Notes: generated from the sequence alone by a model not told the origin. A stretch of DNA of 64,000 nt from Alkalispirochaeta sp. (GCA_965242725.1 CBDESZ010000016.1:1-64000); one strand, 5' to 3'. Positions 35,423-43,260 are shown, counted from the stretch's first letter. A program made the numbers and translations.

Positions 35423-36007
35423 TCACCCCACCGTCTCCAAAAACTCCCCCGCATACCTGGACGAATACGGCGCCGAAGAATGCTCAAGATACATCCACCG
35501 GAGATTCACAATCTGGCGGATATGGAAGAAGTCATGGGCAACCCACGCCGCAACGATATCACCCGCCCGGAGCGCCTGCGTCCCCGGGGCGGGATTCCGG
35601 TGCAGCACATCGGGATCGAAGTTGTCCACCCTTCCCAGCCATTCCAGAGAGGCGGCGCGCTCACGATTGAAGACCTGCACCACGCCGCTCAAATCGAGCT
35701 CCCTCCCCGGCGCATCCTCCGGCCCAAAGGGCCACTCAAACGACGGAAACGGATCGTCCGGATTCCGCAGCACCGAGGAAAGGCGGGCGCGGAAATCATC
35801 GCATTCCTCAACAACCAGGTGGCGGACGATCTGAAGCAGCGACCACCGCTCCTCCGCCGACCATCGACGGACCACATCCGACGCACCGCCCGCCGCATCG
35901 GAAGCAACGCCGCTCCACGCAGCCTCCTCCGGTTGCACCCCCTCAAGGAGCCCGACAATGGCCGCGCCGTTCGCCTCCAGTCGCAATCGCAACTCATCAA
36001 TATTCAT
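35423..36007 (-). CDS. DinB/DUF664-like four-helix protein
   Basis: WSLLQIVRHL and WVAHDFFHIRQI histidine motifs. Confidence 0.85.
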   Translation of the reverse strand: MNIDELRLRLEANGAAIVGLLEGVQPEEAAWSGVASDAAGGASDVVRRWSAEERWSLLQIVRHLVVEECDDFRARLSSVLRNPDDPFPSFEWPFGPEDAPGRELDLSGVVQVFNRERAASLEWLGRVDNFDPDVLHRNPAPGTQALRAGDIVAAWVAHDFFHIRQIVNLRWMYLEHSSAPYSSRYAGEFLETVG

Positions 36008-36052
36008 GCATCACAGCATATCAGCCGTTCCGGCATTCCGGAAAATATAATT

Positions 36053-36076
36053 GAACCATCCGGTTCCGCTGAGCGG
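36053..36076 (+). repeat. Dispersed structured repeat, copy 4 of 4 (core only)
   Basis: Identical 24-nt core preceded by CGGAAAATATAATT; the CACCCGGATCG arm is absent. Confidence 0.85.
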
Positions 36077-36128
36077 ACACCCCTCATCACCCCTTTCTAT
36101 CGCCTCCCGGGGCGAGTATTCTACGGGC

Positions 36129-36539
36129 ATGGACCCCGACGCGCTGGCCCAGGCACTGAAGAATGTCTCAACCTATGACGTCGCCCGCTCCGGCGGACCG
36201 GGCGGGCAAAATGTGAACAAGCTCAACACAAAGGTGGTTCTTCGTGTGCCGGTGGGCCAGCTCCCCCTCTCGGAAGCAGAAGCGGCAAGAATCCGCCGCG
36301 TCCTGGAAAACCGGATCAACCGTGAGGACGAGCTGGTCATTCACTCCTCGGAAACTCGCAGTCAGACGGAGAACAGAACGCGGGCGGAAGAGCGCGCCTT
36401 GGGGCTGCTCCTTGAAGCGGCCACACCGCCCAAACGGCGCAAGCGCACACGCCCGTCCAAAGCGGCCCGGGAACGGCGCATCATCGCCAAGAAACAACGA
36501 GGCGAAACAAAGCGATTCCGGCGGGATCCGGAGGGGTAG
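36129..36539 (+). CDS. arfB: Alternative ribosome rescue peptidyl-tRNA hydrolase
   Basis: RSGGPGGQNVNK (GGQ motif), RSQxENR, basic C-terminal tail. Confidence 0.93.
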   Translation: MDPDALAQALKNVSTYDVARSGGPGGQNVNKLNTKVVLRVPVGQLPLSEAEAARIRRVLENRINREDELVIHSSETRSQTENRTRAEERALGLLLEAATPPKRRKRTRPSKAARERRIIAKKQRGETKRFRRDPEG

Positions 36540-36734
36540 GAGGAGTGGGTGGATTGATGGTGTTTCGTTGTAGTAGAATCCGTGTCGTGGGATGTTCTTT
36601 CGACGGAAACGTGACTCTCATGTTGGTCGCGGCGCGGTTTCCGGACATCGCCGTTACTTCCTGGGCGACTCGTCGGTGCCTCAATACCGATCTCCTCAAA
36701 GACTAAAAGTAACCGTCTCTATGAGTGCAGGATG

Positions 36735-37823
36735 TCAAGCAGCGAAGTCGAAGTTCTTGAATCGTTCGAAGTCGCGCTTCTTTCGCCGAAACGAGCTCTC
36801 TCTTGGAAACCGACTGGCCTCACCATTCTTCAACATATAGAAGATCGTTCCGATCGTTCTTCCTACAACTGCGACACGGATCTTCTTGCGGGACTTCCCC
36901 AAGGATCGAGCGACAAATCGATCGAGTAGCGGATTGCCGTCCACTAAGTGATGAGAGGCTTCCAACAACAGGGTAAATGTGAGTCGTCGTCCTCGCTTGT
37001 TGATACCGCCAATATGGGTGCGTTCATTTGACGAATCGACTCGAGGTGCGGCCCGGAGATAACTTACGAGATGTCTCCTTGTACGAAAACGTCGGATATC
37101 GACGATGTCCGACATGATGCAGACGCTGCCGAACACGCTTATCCCATGGATCGTCATTAGTACTTGGACTTCCTGAGAATATCGGATGACGCCAAGAGCT
37201 GTGATTCGGTCTCGAGTTGCCTCAAAGTCCGCGTCGATCAATTCGTACTCCCTCAGAAGTTGACGGATCATAAACCGGTCGGAGTCGCGGAAGCTGGGGT
37301 TCGCAAAAACCTCATCGGGGCTTGTCATCAGATCTTGACGACTGATTTGAATCATTCGCTGGCGACATACTGCGAATATTCGATTGCGAATCCGGTTCCG
37401 GGAGGTCGTCAGATACTGGTAGTGCGTGACAAGTACTCGGAGTTCCTGTGTCTTTTCGTCCGGAACAAAGACTTCAGGAAAATGGTCGTCCTTATCGTCG
37501 TTTTCAAGATGGCGTTTGAGTGCGTTAGCAAGTTTCCTGGCATCAACACGATCGGTCTTTTTCACGCCGCCCCATATCAGGCGCATATCCATCGGATTCA
37601 CGACAAAGACCCGCGCTCCCGTTGCCCGAACCAATCCAGCGAAAAAGAACGCCCCGCTGCCCGCCTCAACGCAAACGGCAGCATCTGCATTCAAGTCGTC
37701 GAGGAAACGATCGATACTATCCAGCGGGTATCGTCGATTCTGCCGCTCGATGCCGTTCATCCCTTCTCGAATCAGGTGGACCGTGATTTGCGTCGAATGC
37801 TGATCAACACCAACATAGACCAT
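36735..37823 (-). CDS. IS110-family DEDD recombinase/transposase
   Basis: YVGVDQH, VCVEAG and KTDRVDA (DEDD); C-terminal PRVDSS serine motif; AGGAGG SD. Confidence 0.95.
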   Translation of the reverse strand: MVYVGVDQHSTQITVHLIREGMNGIERQNRRYPLDSIDRFLDDLNADAAVCVEAGSGAFFFAGLVRATGARVFVVNPMDMRLIWGGVKKTDRVDARKLANALKRHLENDDKDDHFPEVFVPDEKTQELRVLVTHYQYLTTSRNRIRNRIFAVCRQRMIQISRQDLMTSPDEVFANPSFRDSDRFMIRQLLREYELIDADFEATRDRITALGVIRYSQEVQVLMTIHGISVFGSVCIMSDIVDIRRFRTRRHLVSYLRAAPRVDSSNERTHIGGINKRGRRLTFTLLLEASHHLVDGNPLLDRFVARSLGKSRKKIRVAVVGRTIGTIFYMLKNGEASRFPRESSFRRKKRDFERFKNFDFAA

Positions 37824-37839
37824 ACTGCAACCTCCTCAG

Positions 37840-38075
37840 AAAAATTTGAGAGAAGGACGGTCCTGATCGAGTGCGTCTCATGCCTCTATGCGAGCTACCG
37901 CCATCCGCTTACACGGCGGGCCCAGGAGATCGTACGAAGAAGGCTGACTAGTCCAATTAACGGGCTTGTGATTTTCCGATGAGAATCACCCCCAACGGTT
38001 ACTTCAGCCTTCGTCAATCCGTCACCTCTCAGGACCGACGGTACCTTCTCTCGTACGACCTCTCAAGGCCGCCGG
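37840..38075 (-). ncRNA. Predicted bridge/seek RNA of the IS110 element
   Basis: Non-coding, with nested stems; an internal loop carries GUAACCGU and AAUUGGAC, which match the two halves of the insertion target. RNA ends are inferred. Confidence 0.85.
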
Positions 38076-38159
38076 CACTCATGATGTCCAATTTTCCCGC
38101 ACCTTACGATCAGCACCGGAGTGAATCATACTGCTGACTTTCAAAAGGAGGGCATCGGT

Positions 38160-38471
38160 ATGACAGCGAATAATCAGTCTGAAGAGCGCCGGGAAATGGT
38201 GCGCCAGTTTCATGAAAGCGGGATGACTCAAAAGGACTTTGCCGCGTTTTATGGAGTCACGCGGAGCACCTTGGGATATTGGGTGCGACGGCTTCGGGAG
38301 AACGAGCAATCGACGGAAACGACCTCGTTCGTCCCCGTCGGAGCGATTATGTCTCCCACACGTTCAACGGCACTTCGCGTCATCATCCGTTCCGGTGTAA
38401 CGGTAGAATTGGATCTTCCCGCGTCTGAAGAAACGATACGAATGGTGTTGAAGGCGGCCCAGTCGATATGA
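38160..38471 (+). CDS. tnpA: IS66 accessory HTH protein
   Basis: SGMTQKDFAAFYGVTRSTLGYWVRRL, then SFVPV. Confidence 0.9.
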   Translation: MTANNQSEERREMVRQFHESGMTQKDFAAFYGVTRSTLGYWVRRLRENEQSTETTSFVPVGAIMSPTRSTALRVIIRSGVTVELDLPASEETIRMVLKAAQSI

Positions 38472-38818
38472 TCGGTCCGGATTTCTCGCAGATAGCGATT
38501 TATGTCCGACCCGGCATCACGGACATGCGGAAAGCTATAAATGGTCTTGCGATCATCGCGACCGAGCAGATGAACAAAGACCCATTGTCCGGAGCACTGT
38601 TCCTGTTCTGCAACCGCTACCGAAGAATTATGAAGGCCCTTTATTGGGACAAGAACGGGTTCTGTCTTTGGCAGAAGAAACTCGAAAAGCACCGCTTCCC
38701 GTGGCCGCAAACTGAAGAGGCTGCTCGGAGCATCACCGCCGGAGAACTCCGGATGCTTCTCGAGGGTATCGACTTCTGGCATGTCCACGAGTCGTTACCG
38801 TATCGTTCGGTCTCCTAA
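38468..38818 (+). CDS. tnpB: IS66 accessory protein
   Basis: TDMRKAINGL, LFLFCNR, LYWDKNGFCLWQKKLE. Confidence 0.95.
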   Translation: MIGPDFSQIAIYVRPGITDMRKAINGLAIIATEQMNKDPLSGALFLFCNRYRRIMKALYWDKNGFCLWQKKLEKHRFPWPQTEEAARSITAGELRMLLEGIDFWHVHESLPYRSVS

Positions 38819-39206
38819 GGCTATACACACAAATTCCAGCATGCTAGAATTCTGGCCATGGCGTTGGCCGATACGGTGCTGGAACAGCTTGATCCTCAAG
38901 TCCGATCCTACATCGAAGATCTCGAGAAACAGTCCGCATCACTGGCACGTGAAAATGAACACTTATCCCAGGAGAAAGAAGCCCTTTCCAACGAGGTGCA
39001 GTCTCTTGTGTACACCGGCCCAAAACGGACACGTATTCCGGTGGAAAGCGGACAGTGATTCCGGCGTAATCCGGACACCGATTCCGGCGGAAAACGGACA
39101 GTTTTTCCGGAGCGCCGGAATCGATTCAGCCTGACAGAAGAGATCCTCGATCAATACGGGCACTCCCGGCAAACTGGTGGGTAACATCATTGTGAGGGAG
39201 TACGGA

Positions 39207-40754
39207 ATGCCGAGAGAGAGGATACCTGTGAAACACATGCGCAAATTGCTTGCGCTCACCTACGAGAGCAAACTGGGGCTTCGGGACGTATCGCGACTCA
39301 CCGGAGTATCGAAGACGACGATCAGTGAATACCTGGTGCGATTCAGACGCACCGGAATCAGCTTTGAGAAGAGCCTTGAGCTCACCGATGACGAACTGCT
39401 TGGCCTGTTCGAAGAGAAAAAGCAGGAAGAAAGCGAGCAGTACACGCAGGTGATGGCGCTCTTCCCGGAATACGCAAAACGGTTAAAGCGCCGGGGAATG
39501 ACCAAGCAGCTGTTGTGGGAGGAGTACCGGACGCAGCACCCCGACGGGTATCGCTACAGCCAGTTCTGTCACCACTTTGGCATGTTCCTGGAATCCGGCG
39601 AGGTCACCATGCGGCAACCTCACGAACCGGGAGACATGGCCTACATCGATTACGCCGGTGAGACCTTCCCGTACTATCGAGACGGCGAAGAACAGCAGGC
39701 AGAGGTATTCGTTGCGGTACTCGGAGCAAGCCAACTCGCGTATGTCGAAGCTGACGAGAGCCAGAAACAGGAAGCGTTTCTCCGTTCAACCGAGCGGGCG
39801 TTGCGCTATTTCGACGGAGTTCCCCGCGCTCTGGTACCGGATAATCTGAAGGCGGCCGTGCTCAAGGCAAGCAAATACGAACCGGAAATCAATCCGCTGT
39901 TCGACGATTTTGCCGAGTATTACCGAACGACGGTTATTCCCGCCAGGGCATACAAACCAAAAGACAAGGCCCTGGCGGAGAACACCGTCAAATTAACCTA
40001 CCAGCGGATTTTCGCCCCGCTGTACGGCAGGACGTTCCATTCGTTGGCTGAGCTCAACCAGGCCATCGCCGAACGCCTTGAGACCCACAATACTCGAGAA
40101 TTGACCAAGCTGCAAATCTCTCGACGGCAGTTGTTTGAGGAGATCGAACGATCGGCGCTGAAGACGCTGCCCAGCGCGCCGTATCCGATGAAATCCTTCG
40201 AGAACCACAAGGTTGCACCGGACTATCACTTTATCCTGTCGGAAGATAAGCACTACTACTCCGTTCCCTGGCAGTTGAAGGGTGTGCAGGTAAAGGTGAT
40301 CTTCGATGAGCGTATCGTCGCGGTATATCACGACAACGTACGCGTTGCCCAGCACCGGCGCAGCCGGAAAAAAGGGCAGTACACGACAAAAGCCGAGCAC
40401 ATGCCCAAGCACCACCGGTTTTTTCAATCCTGGTCTGCCGAAAAGTTCACCTCCTGGGCCAATTCCATCGGAGAAGAGACGTTCCTGGTGATTTCTCGGC
40501 TCCTGAGCGATAAACCCCATGAGCAACAGGCATACAAGTCCTGTCTTGGGGTGCTGAATATGGCACAGGAAGTCGGTTCAGATCGACTGAACTTGGCCTG
40601 TCGACGAGCCCTTAACTACTCCAGAATCAGCTATCGGGATGTCCGTGGGTATCTGGACGAGATTTTGCGCCAGGAGAAGGATGATCACGAGGATGATCGG
40701 GTACTTCTTTTCACCGACCACAAGAATCTGCGTGATTCGGCAATCTACAAGTAA
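39207..40754 (+). CDS. istA: IS21 transposase
   Basis: AYIDYAG, VPDNLKAAV, PKDKALAE DDE motifs. Confidence 0.95.
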   Translation: MPRERIPVKHMRKLLALTYESKLGLRDVSRLTGVSKTTISEYLVRFRRTGISFEKSLELTDDELLGLFEEKKQEESEQYTQVMALFPEYAKRLKRRGMTKQLLWEEYRTQHPDGYRYSQFCHHFGMFLESGEVTMRQPHEPGDMAYIDYAGETFPYYRDGEEQQAEVFVAVLGASQLAYVEADESQKQEAFLRSTERALRYFDGVPRALVPDNLKAAVLKASKYEPEINPLFDDFAEYYRTTVIPARAYKPKDKALAENTVKLTYQRIFAPLYGRTFHSLAELNQAIAERLETHNTRELTKLQISRRQLFEEIERSALKTLPSAPYPMKSFENHKVAPDYHFILSEDKHYYSVPWQLKGVQVKVIFDERIVAVYHDNVRVAQHRRSRKKGQYTTKAEHMPKHHRFFQSWSAEKFTSWANSIGEETFLVISRLLSDKPHEQQAYKSCLGVLNMAQEVGSDRLNLACRRALNYSRISYRDVRGYLDEILRQEKDDHEDDRVLLFTDHKNLRDSAIYK

Positions 40755-40756
40755 GG

Positions 40757-41506
40757 ATGAGCACCATGAACAATAATCAGGCAACGATCAACAGAATGAC
40801 CGAGATGCGCCTGCATGGAATGGCCCAGGCGTTTCGCACGCTTCAGGAAACCGGAAAAACCATGGATCTCACCATCGACGAGACGATCACGTACCTGATC
40901 GACGCCGAATGGGATGAGAAGCACAACCGACGGCTCGATCGGCTTACCCGGGCTGCCCGGTTCCGCTACCAGGCTGCATTGGAAGATATCGACTACACCC
41001 TGGATCGGAATCTGGACAAGAACCAGATTCTTCGGCTCGCCGACTGCTCGTGGATATCCCGGGGGCAGGATCTTCTCATCACCGGTCCAACCGGTTGTGG
41101 AAAAAGCTTTCTCGGATCAGCCTTCGGGCATCAGGCGTGCCAGCACGGCCATTCCGTGGCGTACTTTTCCGCATCTCGCCTGTTCAACGAAATCGAAGCG
41201 GCCAAGGCGGATGGAACATACCTGAAACATCTGACACGAATCATGAAGAGCGCATTACTGCTCATCGACGACTTCGGCCTGGAGCCGCTCAACCATACCT
41301 CTCGAATGGCTCTCCTTGAAATCCTTGAGGACCGGCACCGACGGAAATCAACAATGATCATCTCTCAGCAACCGGTAGAGAACTGGCATGCCCTCATAGG
41401 CGACCCGACGATCGCCGACGCAATCATGGATCGGCTTGCATTTCATTCTCACCGAATTGAGATCACCGGCGACACGGTGAGGAGGAAACTCTATGCGGTA
41501 GATTGA
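40757..41506 (+). CDS. istB: IS21 helper ATPase
   Basis: GPTGCGKS, LLIDDFG, ADAIMDRL. Confidence 0.95.
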   Translation: MSTMNNNQATINRMTEMRLHGMAQAFRTLQETGKTMDLTIDETITYLIDAEWDEKHNRRLDRLTRAARFRYQAALEDIDYTLDRNLDKNQILRLADCSWISRGQDLLITGPTGCGKSFLGSAFGHQACQHGHSVAYFSASRLFNEIEAAKADGTYLKHLTRIMKSALLLIDDFGLEPLNHTSRMALLEILEDRHRRKSTMIISQQPVENWHALIGDPTIADAIMDRLAFHSHRIEITGDTVRRKLYAVD

Positions 41507-43260
41507 CCTGAAAACGGACAGCTGTTATGAGTGATGGCGAGGATTTTGTTCCTTCAGGCAGCTGTCCGTTTTCGCCCGGAATCCCTGTCCGAAATCACCG
41601 GAGTACACACTCTCGAAGAGAAGCTCCAGCTGGCTGTTTTTCTCCGTTTCGGTCGTTCCAGTGAGCAATCCACCGTCGCTCCCGGCCAGGGCGATCTGTT
41701 TACCGAGGCCGATGACACAACCACGGCGGAGTCAGAAGAATCCGAGGACAAAGACACCGTAACGGTCGCCGCCCATACGAAGAAAAAGCCCGGCCGCAAG
41801 CCGATTGATCCGGCGCTTCCCCGCTTTGAACGGGTCATCGATATTTCCGATGGCGACAAACAGTGTGCCTGTGGTCACCAGATGGTACGGATCGGTGAAG
41901 AAGTTACCGAGCGCATTCAGGTCATTCCGGAGAAGATCTGGGTCGATCGTATCGTTCGCCCCAAATACGCATGCCACCAATGCGAAGGGTCCGGTGATGA
42001 ATCCAAACCCGCAGTGCGAATAGCGCCGGTGGAACCGACAGTGGTTCCCGGAGGTATCGCCACCGCGAGCCTGATCGCCTTTATCCTGGTTAACAAGTTT
42101 GTGGATCACTTGCCGTTCTACCGGCAGGAAAAACGATTTGAGCGGATCGGGATCACCATATCCCGAGAGAACATGAGTAACTGGACGATCCGCTCTGCCC
42201 AGGTACTCCAGCCATTGATCGATCGGTTTCGGACGCTGATTCGCGGAGGGCCGGTGGTGAATGTCGATGATACCCGGGTACAGGTCATGAAAGAACCGGG
42301 GCGGGCAGATACAACGAACAGCTTTATGTGGCTTGCCCGCGGCGGGCCGCCGGATTCACCGGTAACACTGTATCACTACAGCCCGACCCGGAGCGCCGAC
42401 TATCTCAGACGACTCCTCTCAGGGACTGCGCTCTACATGCAGGGTGACGCGTATCAGGCGCATGAGCAACTGGCAAAGGAAGAACCCGGCATTATGCGGG
42501 TTGGGTGCTTCGCCCATGCCCGGCGAAAGTTTCACGAGGCGGCGAAGGGGAGCAAGAAAGCCGGCGCTGCCCACGAGGGGATGAAATACATCGGCCAGCT
42601 CTACCGGATCGAGACGGAGTTGCGTGCATTGGGTCTCTCCGACGATGAGTTCTCTAGGAAACGACGTGAGAGGACAGAACCGATCATGGCGAAGTATCAT
42701 CAATGGTTGACCAAGAAGCAGCAGGCCGTTGTTCCTTCAACTCTTCTGGGAAAGGCAGTGACCTATACGCTCGACGAATGGCCGGCGCTTGTTCGCTACC
42801 TCGATCACCCGGCACTCACCCCGGACAATAATGCCGCCGAAAACGCAATCCGCCCCTTTGTTCTGGGCCGGAAGAACTGGCTGTTCTCCGGAAGCCCGAA
42901 CGGCGCTGCCGCCTCATGCGCGATCTATTCATTGATCGAGACTGCGAAGCAGAACAGCCTGAACCCGTTCGCGTATCTGTACTATGTCCTTGATCGGGCT
43001 CCACGGATCATCGCCGATTCCGAATGGGATGAGCTGCTTCCCGGTAAGCTCACTGAGGAAACGATATCAGCATCCTACCCCGCACCGGGGCGTTTAATTT
43101 GACGGTTACGACTAAAAACGAGACATGCCAGTCGAGAGTCACCAAGAAAAGTGCAAAAGAATCTGGACACTACCCGAACGCTTCGAAGGTATTCTGTATA
43201 GATTTTGCGACAGCCTCTATATGCTTCGTAAATGTGATGACCGTTCACGAAGAGGATAGT

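Follow-up and report, generated by a model that had tools for sequence, protein, structure and literature searches.

An IS110-family element with a predicted bridge RNA aimed at the inverted repeat of an IS66-family element in Alkalispirochaeta sp.

We describe an IS110-family element that interrupts an IS66-family element in its left inverted repeat, in a 64,000-nucleotide stretch of DNA from Alkalispirochaeta sp. (GCA_965242725.1 CBDESZ010000016.1:1-64000), hereafter the window. Very probably, this is an intact element encoding a recombinase and, on the same strand, a bridge (seek) RNA, which lies in its 262-nt left end and is programmed for the IS66 tip. We base this reading on the anatomy of the element, its family membership, the perfect match between its guides and its flanks, the covariation of guides and flanks among relatives and the identity of the insertion site. 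As far as mechanism is concerned, the comparison of sequences supports it well. Its ecological side, i.e. the exploitation of IS66 ends, is seen once.

Results

An IS110 element in the left end of an IS66 element

The IS110-family element lies on the minus strand at 36717-38085. It is intact and spans 1369 bp plus one copy of a 2-bp core, GT/AC, copies of which bound it at 36715-36716 and 38086-38087. Its junctions can be read directly. On the element strand the left end begins with ATCATGAG at 38085 and the right end closes with CTCATAGAG at 36717, motifs that are kept in relatives. The plus-strand flanks are GTAACCGT (36709-36716) and GTCCAATT (38086-38093); read on the recombinase strand, the element has AATTGGAC to its left and ACGGTTAC to its right. 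There is no target duplication beyond the short core at both junctions. Removal of the element and one core copy yields a 14-mer, 13 positions of which are found at the other end of the IS66 element. The first-pass annotation had claimed that excision restores the first 14 bp of the IS66 left end, and this is what we observe; all the strings that it named were found at their positions when the window was read.

The host element occupies 36709-43109 on the plus strand and was delimited by its ends, its target duplication and its genes. Members of the IS66 family have terminal inverted repeats starting with GTAA and generate an 8-bp target duplication. Here the ends are of the GTAA type (GTAACCGT(CC)AATT on the left, GTAACCGTCAAATT on the right), an 8-bp duplication, GACTAAAA, stands directly outside both of them (36701-36708 and 43110-43117), and the plus strand carries the set of tnpA (about 38161-38471), tnpB (38468-38818) and tnpC, the latter split into about 38858-39015 and 41609-43102. 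The gene products match PF05717 (6.3e-36), PF03050 (2.5e-91), PF13007, PF13005 and PF13817 in Pfam, and NF047593 (5.3e-16), NF033819 (4e-33) and NF033517 (2.3e-123) in NCBIfam. The tip of the right inverted repeat (43096-43109, minus strand) agrees with the left tip at 13 of 14 positions. Since GACTAAAA lies outside both ends and the right repeat matches this closely, the IS66 element starts at 36709 and the IS110 element lies 8 bp inside its left repeat. The insertion site is thus the first 14 bp of the IS66 left inverted repeat, and the insertion separates the IS66 tip from the remainder of its left end. The right tip is an unoccupied near-cognate site, whose single mismatch falls in the left-target half. 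With up to three mismatches the 14-mer is found three times in the window against 4.4 expected, i.e. it is not enriched, and only the one-mismatch site at the IS66 right end is notable, by virtue of its position.

The host element carries a further insertion. An IS21-family element occupies approximately 39016-41602 (plus strand) within tnpC, with istA at 39177-40754 and istB at 40757-41506 (Pfam IstB_IS21, 6.7e-66; NCBIfam NF033546), repeats at 39072-39101 and 41562-41591, and GTACAC flanks at 39010-39015 and 41603-41608. With the IS110 element at its left end and the IS21 element in tnpC, the host IS66 element is broken twice. Two other copies of the same type (G000:C16:68211-69530 and G000:C3:47385-48068, one of them about 4 kb past the end of the window) are decayed, with 78% and 83% protein identity and 3 and 4 stop codons, and the genome has a further IS66 copy at 46% identity. 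None of the other IS66 copies examined in this genome has this left end. The IS66 relatives found on plasmids are all below 47% identity and no named IS could be assigned.

A distant IS110-family recombinase

The recombinase gene (36735-37823, minus strand) is an intact open reading frame of 362 aa, with a left non-coding end, or leader, of 262 nt (37824-38085) and a right end of 18 nt (36717-36734). Its product matches PF01548 (1.1e-11, residues 4-152) and PF02371 (1.5e-12, residues 220-302), and scores 177.3 bits against NCBIfam NF033542 ('IS110 family RNA-guided transposase'), for which the cut-off is 140. When searched as a single sequence (phmmer), it retrieves no PDB chain at E 0.01 and a profile is needed, so that its relationship to the studied enzymes is distant. 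The profile of an alignment of 18 recombinases (this one and those of 17 relatives) matches the IS621 transposase (8wt6, E 4.9e-11) and ISCro4 (9t56, E 7e-8), and brings its motifs into line with GIDTA, IEAT, KTDTVDA and YESGSS of IS621. Residues D7, E53, D91, D94 and S265 are invariant across the 18 sequences and fall on the IS621 motifs with D11, E60, D102, D105 and S241 (by reading, the chain numbering is offset by 2), the catalytic roles of which are described in PMC11208158. The element belongs to the IS110 family and its recombinase is of the DEDD/Ser type.

The ends also carry subterminal inverted repeats of 8 bp, exact and 3-4 nt from each tip, at 36721-36728 (GCACTCAT on the element strand) and 38082-38075 (ATGAGTGC). 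In 10 relatives the exact repeat measures 2-11 bp, the value of 2 bp coming from a single locus (L179) whose right end is cut off. The sequences of these repeats vary from element to element.

A target-binding loop that matches the insertion site

The leader holds, at 37939-38012 on the minus strand, the target-binding loop of a predicted bridge (seek) RNA. The loop was delineated from folds and from alignment to relatives, and we assign it because guides and flanks covary in the relatives and because a covariance model of the family recovers it (see below). In the order of the predicted RNA, the loop has a stem, the 5' guide, UGGG, a hairpin, CCCG, UU, the 3' guide, UAG and the closing stem. 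The outer stem would pair 38012-38004 with 37947-37939 (GAAGGCUGA with UCAGCCUUC on the RNA strand; on the plus strand, GAAGGCTGA at 37939-37947 and TCAGCCTTC at 38004-38012). The inner stem, UGGG (37994-37991) with CCCG (37964-37961), is the inner closure conserved in the family, and on top of it stands a hairpin that is variable among relatives (37989-37968; plus-strand arms GTGATTTTC at 37968-37976 and GAGAATCAC at 37981-37989). The 5' or right-target guide, AGUAACCGU (37995-38003), reads as the reverse complement of the right flank together with the core; the 3' or left-target guide, AAUUGGAC (37951-37958), has the same sequence as the left flank, again with the core. On the plus strand the guides read GTCCAATT at 37951-37958 and ACGGTTAC at 37995-38002.

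The left-target guide matches exactly over 8 nt, up to the boundary of the left end. The right-target guide matches over 9 nt in the loop (38003-37995), or 10 nt counting the last stem base, and thereby reaches 1-2 nt past the IS66 tip, into DNA specific to the insertion locus. Both guides overlap at the AC/GT core. The first-pass annotation had placed them on opposite sides of an internal loop with this 2-nt GT overlap, an arrangement borne out by our analysis. When the leader is folded, the outer stem and the hairpin are present in the MFE structure as well as in the centroid structure. Of the loop geometry it proposed, the outer stem and the hairpin hold, whereas the role of inner closure passes from the hairpin to the conserved UGGG/CCCG, and the right guide extends to 9-10 nt. 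The two 8-mers at the observed spacing are found once in the window against 0.01 expected per shuffled window (1 of 100 shuffles had a match), and the guides of other elements match the flanks in the window over at most 6 nt on either side. The leader folds with a z score of -2.30, an equally good fold being obtained in 3 of 200 shuffles. No Rfam family matched 36000-39000 at E up to 1, in a library that may lack a model reaching this clade.

Guides and flanks covary among relatives

The best non-self match of the recombinase is at 48% in the protein database, which also holds one 206-aa fragment at 67%, and the best relative in a set of one representative genome per species of bacteria and archaea is at 48% identity. 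With the 18-sequence alignment, we found 43 loci in representative genomes and 79 in metagenome contigs. About 50 non-identical leaders from elements with 26-48% protein identity have one scaffold in common. Its outer stem has the consensus GAAGGCYGG / CCAGCCUUC, and encloses a variable strand of 8-10 nt, UGGG, a variable hairpin, CCCG and a variable strand of 9-11 nt before the closing stem. After a linker comes a second UGGG-hairpin-CCCG unit and then a nearly invariant AUAGA(G/C) followed by two bases.

We extracted the two variable strands by alignment anchoring and determined over what length each is matched exactly in its flank, i.e. in the 205 nt that precede the loop or the 110 nt past the stop codon, taking the longest such match, after removal of identical guide pairs (from 51 to 45); 4 loci on the left and 11 on the right were left out for having too little flank. 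The 3' strand matches its own left flank over 7.2 nt on average (n=40), against 5.0 nt under permutation, and the match reaches at least 7 nt in 26 of 40 loci where 3.5 are expected. By reading, 25 of these 26 matches end 0-3 nt before the conserved ...ATGA motif of the left end. On the right, the 5' strand, taken as its reverse complement, agrees with the flank of its own element over 6.5 nt on average (n=33), against 4.5 nt, with at least 7 nt in 17 of 33 loci (1.3 expected), and these matches start directly after CATAGA(N). None of 10,000 permutations reached the observed values on the left or on the right, although the elements permuted are related and not independent. The covariation of guide and target for which the first-pass annotation proposed to test homologues of 36735-37823 is there and, along with the domain matches and the covariance model, it supports the claim that this is an RNA-guided member of the IS110 family.

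The stems covary as well. RNAalifold on a MAFFT alignment returned only 8 pairs owing to register shifts, and the structure was therefore supplied by hand. From 50 relatives, with the window left out, we built a covariance model that gave 71 matches across 100 sources and, in the 64 kb of the window, a sole match (minus strand, 37876-37998; 44.5 bits, E 2.8e-9). The model aligns the 3' half of the target loop and the donor loop of the window element. The 5' half is in the wrong register, starting at 37998 instead of 38012, because the hairpin of this element is long; this half rests on manual alignment to the relatives. Among 68 distinct sequences, in an alignment fitted to the model, both partners vary in 12 of the 16 modelled pairs, and compensatory change affects all 8 pairs of the outer stem in relatives. 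Five measures of covariation were not reached in any of 500 shuffles, and slid controls were far lower. G-U pairs are frequent (26 G-U at pair 6-95, 62 U-G at pair 26-69); as they would be A-C mismatches on the other strand, the RNA is predicted to be made from the recombinase strand.

In many of the relatives (L009, L020, L165, L175, L197 and others) the dinucleotides at the two junctions are not the same. In those elements the right guide and the donor guide match the right-junction pair, and the match of the left guide is confined to the left flank. The picture of one core shared by both junctions, which fits the window and IS621, does not describe the whole clade.

Some loci showed other peculiarities. 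L004 (3987-4100) has a tandem duplication, ahead of the right flank, of about the last 45 bases of the element, which comprise the end of the gene and the right end. L002 has a second match to the covariance model on the opposite strand (2010-2145, minus), another IS110 recombinase gene adjoins the relative in L138 (19-1110), and an IS91-like (Y2_Tnp) gene lies just beyond the right end of the relative in L013 (3270-4601). These three cases may be further nested or clustered elements.

A donor loop and a putative junction promoter

The second loop of the predicted RNA, the donor-binding loop (37882-37933, minus strand), reads ACGAUCUCC, UGGG, a hairpin, CUCG and CAUAGAGGC. Its 3' strand, CAUAGAGGC (37890-37882), repeats the right end of the element, CATAGAG, followed by the core. 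The copy of the core in the loop is GC where the DNA core is AC, i.e. G replaces A at the first core base. By reading, the 5' strand, ACGAUCUCC, shows a partial and discontinuous complementarity to the left end. Donor pairing at this place is likewise discontinuous in IS621 (PMC11208160). The ATAGA motif of the donor loop is invariant in an alignment of 51 sequences, and in relatives the two bases after AUAGA(N) are usually the same as the two that follow the right end. The donor loop of the clade is built in the same order as its target loop.

A putative -35 box, TTGACA (36733-36738, minus strand), overlaps the stop codon of the recombinase. Once the ends of the element are joined, it would stand 17 nt from a candidate -10 box, CATCAT (38086-38081, minus strand), and we infer that the two may form a promoter present only in the excised circle. 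In the integrated form, no sigma-70-like site was found in 36600-38300. A promoter split between the ends and missing from the integrated form would fit the junction promoters described for IS621 and ISEc21 in PMC11208160 and PMC11187229. As in the window, TGA, the stop codon of the recombinase, forms part of TTGAC(A/G) in 10 of the 12 relatives inspected. With the ends joined, the distance from TTGAC(A/G) to a TATAAT-like hexamer would be 16-17 nt in the window, in L002 and in the L005 type; in L009 the spacing does not fit.

Does the element habitually target IS66 ends?

Two accounts of target preference have the RNA-guided mechanism in common. According to the first, the lineage is a dedicated specialist of IS66 ends, whose guides are maintained to fit the conserved GTAA... 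tip of a single IS66 subgroup; it would repeatedly land in such elements and disable them, and may travel with them. The position of the site, at the extreme tip of the repeat, speaks for this account, as does the other end with its 13 matching positions, since each such IS66 element would offer two landing sites. Moreover, end-targeting is a known habit of the IS110 family. Yet the genome has no other copy of the IS110 element, so that one insertion is known, and 60 other genomes of the order contain no relative above 28% identity. The pattern of the left guide within the scaffold was found in none of the metagenome contigs and in none of the viral contigs. In 99 genomes of the order, the 14-mer with at most one mismatch occurs at 30 places in 24 genomes, about the level of a reversed-pattern control, and neither the two exact places nor the four inspected of the 27 other one-mismatch places are followed by the left-end sequence of this IS66. 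Also against the specialist are the other IS66 copies of the genome, which are decayed and without this left end, and the match of the right guide to 1-2 nt of locus-specific DNA beyond the tip. Finally, none of 50 open reading frames of at least 120 aa beside the relatives, selected from 171 of at least 90 aa, belongs to IS66; three come from other mobile elements (IS91-like, IS110 and DDE_Tnp_1_6). The first-pass annotation had described an element that parasitises IS66 ends and had suggested testing the flanks of homologues for IS66 repeats. As a statement of habit this goes beyond the single insertion seen. We regard the specialist as a plausible account that falls just short of being probable.

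Environmental sequences have no bearing on target choice or expression. Short contigs 94-98% alike to the element, from one run each of sediment, seawater and marine RNA, cover 36804-37890 in pieces, among which there is no junction, joint or loose end; apart from the probable source run, no contig covers 37891-38085. The one contig from an RNA library that falls on the element (X8, 37450-37687) is within the gene and does not show transcription.

According to the second account, the IS66 context is incidental: a word of 14-16 bp for which the guides are programmed chanced to be in an IS66 end, and the usual targets of the lineage differ. The case is single, and no IS66 element with this tip was found in the 99 related genomes. 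The closest relatives (Spirochaetota L002-L004, L006, L008 and L012) occupy ordinary intergenic sites, where the flanks form inverted repeats and some sites are palindromic; from their location, the IS66 target would be a retargeting in this lineage. Against the second account, a perfect match of 8 + 10 nt coincides with the opening bases of a terminal repeat, a very particular place among all those in a genome of 4.3 Mb that could hold such a word, and the window offers a single near-cognate site, at the opposite end of that IS66 element. We consider it a serious possibility, if on balance a somewhat improbable one. The inverted repeats across the insertion point in L003 and L004 (CCCTGGGG...CCCCAGG and CTTTAGGG...CCCTAAGG) suggest REP-like or hairpin targets for these two relatives.

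It is very improbable that the complementarity is fortuitous or a by-product, e.g. a copied piece of target, and that the recombinase relies on protein-DNA contacts with no guide RNA: the lack of an Rfam match and an RNA known here from sequence alone are compatible with this, but it is at odds with the covariation of guides and flanks on both sides (0 of 10,000 permutations), the compensatory changes in the stems, the chance expectation of 0.01 and the published experiments on members of the family (PMC11208160, PMC11187229 and PMC11208158).

Discussion

The RNA-guided reading suggests the following course of events, in which transcription, the circle promoter and the chemistry are drawn by analogy with IS621 and ISEc21. 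The IS110 element would leave as a circle, whose joined right and left ends would make a promoter (TTGACA, 17 nt, CATCAT). The leader would then be transcribed and fold into two internal loops. The right and left guides of the target loop, both covering the AC core, would select a site of 14-16 bp that is the outermost part of the IS66 left inverted repeat. The donor loop would hold the element's own joined ends, CAUAGAGGC corresponding to the right end and the core, and the recombinase would exchange strands at the core. The mechanism of bridge RNAs is described in PMC11208160 and PMC11208158 and that of seekRNA in PMC11187229.

The best studied point of comparison is IS621 of E. coli, which belongs to the IS110 group (structures 8wt6-8wt9). 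Both elements have a DEDD/Ser recombinase with aligned catalytic motifs, a long left end encoding an RNA with two internal loops, a 2-nt core, a donor loop that repeats the right end and a promoter split between the ends, the RNA and the promoter being predictions in the window. The relationship is nevertheless very distant, given that the single sequence retrieved no PDB chain. The core is CT in IS621 and AC in the window element, and the target is a REP element in the former and the end of an insertion sequence in the latter. The order of the guides also differs: the left guide of IS621 (A50-U58) comes before its right guide (G77-G80; PMC11208158), whereas in the window and across the clade the 5' position is taken by the right guide and the 3' position by the left. 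As the order of the two target matches varies between IS types and both orders are known (PMC11187229), the reversed order is in itself no novelty. For the subterminal inverted repeat, PMC11208160 gives 2-3 bp in the IS110 group and 7-17 bp in the IS1111 group. Hence, the window element resembles the IS110 group in its long RNA-bearing left end (262 nt) and short right end (18 nt), but departs from it in its 8-bp subterminal repeat and in a guide order opposite to that of IS621. What the clade does is to pair the reversed guide order with an upstream RNA.

Other members of the family also aim at mobile elements. ISEc21 has an upstream guide RNA and a target inside another insertion sequence, as it inserts into the transposase genes of the IS3 family (PMC11187229). 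IS1383, from Pseudomonas putida H, likewise belongs to the IS110 family and is reported to insert specifically into the inverted repeats of another IS, in its case a different host, IS1384 (Muller, Lauf, Hermann 2001, cited in PMC11208160). IS4321 and IS5075 insert into the repeats of the Tn21 family (Partridge & Hall 2003, cited in PMC11208160). They share with the element described here the use of one fixed position in the terminal repeat of another transposable element, as well as subterminal inverted repeats, but their guide RNA is usually downstream of the gene (PMC11187229, PMC11208160) instead of upstream, and their host is a transposon of the Tn3 family and not an IS66 element. Targeting another mobile element is thus already known for the IS110 family, of which this element is a clear new example.

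The first-pass annotation knew of no described case aimed at IS66 ends. This much stands, in that the literature searched (IS110/bridge RNA/IS66, and IS66 with IS1111), which took in neither subscription journals nor ISfinder, has no description of IS66 ends as an IS110 target, although one may be listed in the target tables that supplement PMC11187229 and PMC11208160. Novelty in the broader sense does not, since the targeting of other mobile elements is in print. One might go further and speculate that the lineage is an RNA-guided hyperparasite tuned to the GTAA... tips of IS66 and, at the same time, represents a third arrangement of bridge RNAs, with an upstream RNA as in the IS110 group together with subterminal repeats of 5-11 bp and a reversed guide order as reported for IS1111-type elements. 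We think this combined proposal unlikely.

The known mechanism is left unchanged by this case. What it adds is IS66 ends, to the mobile-element sequences that IS110-family elements aim at. It also provides a natural example in which the predicted guide RNA can be read from the sequence, with the half-sites, the core, an empty sister site and the donor match all in one window. Beyond this single element, the relatives supply about 50 natural pairs of guide and target on a scaffold distant from that of IS621, which may help to compare the architectures of bridge RNAs.
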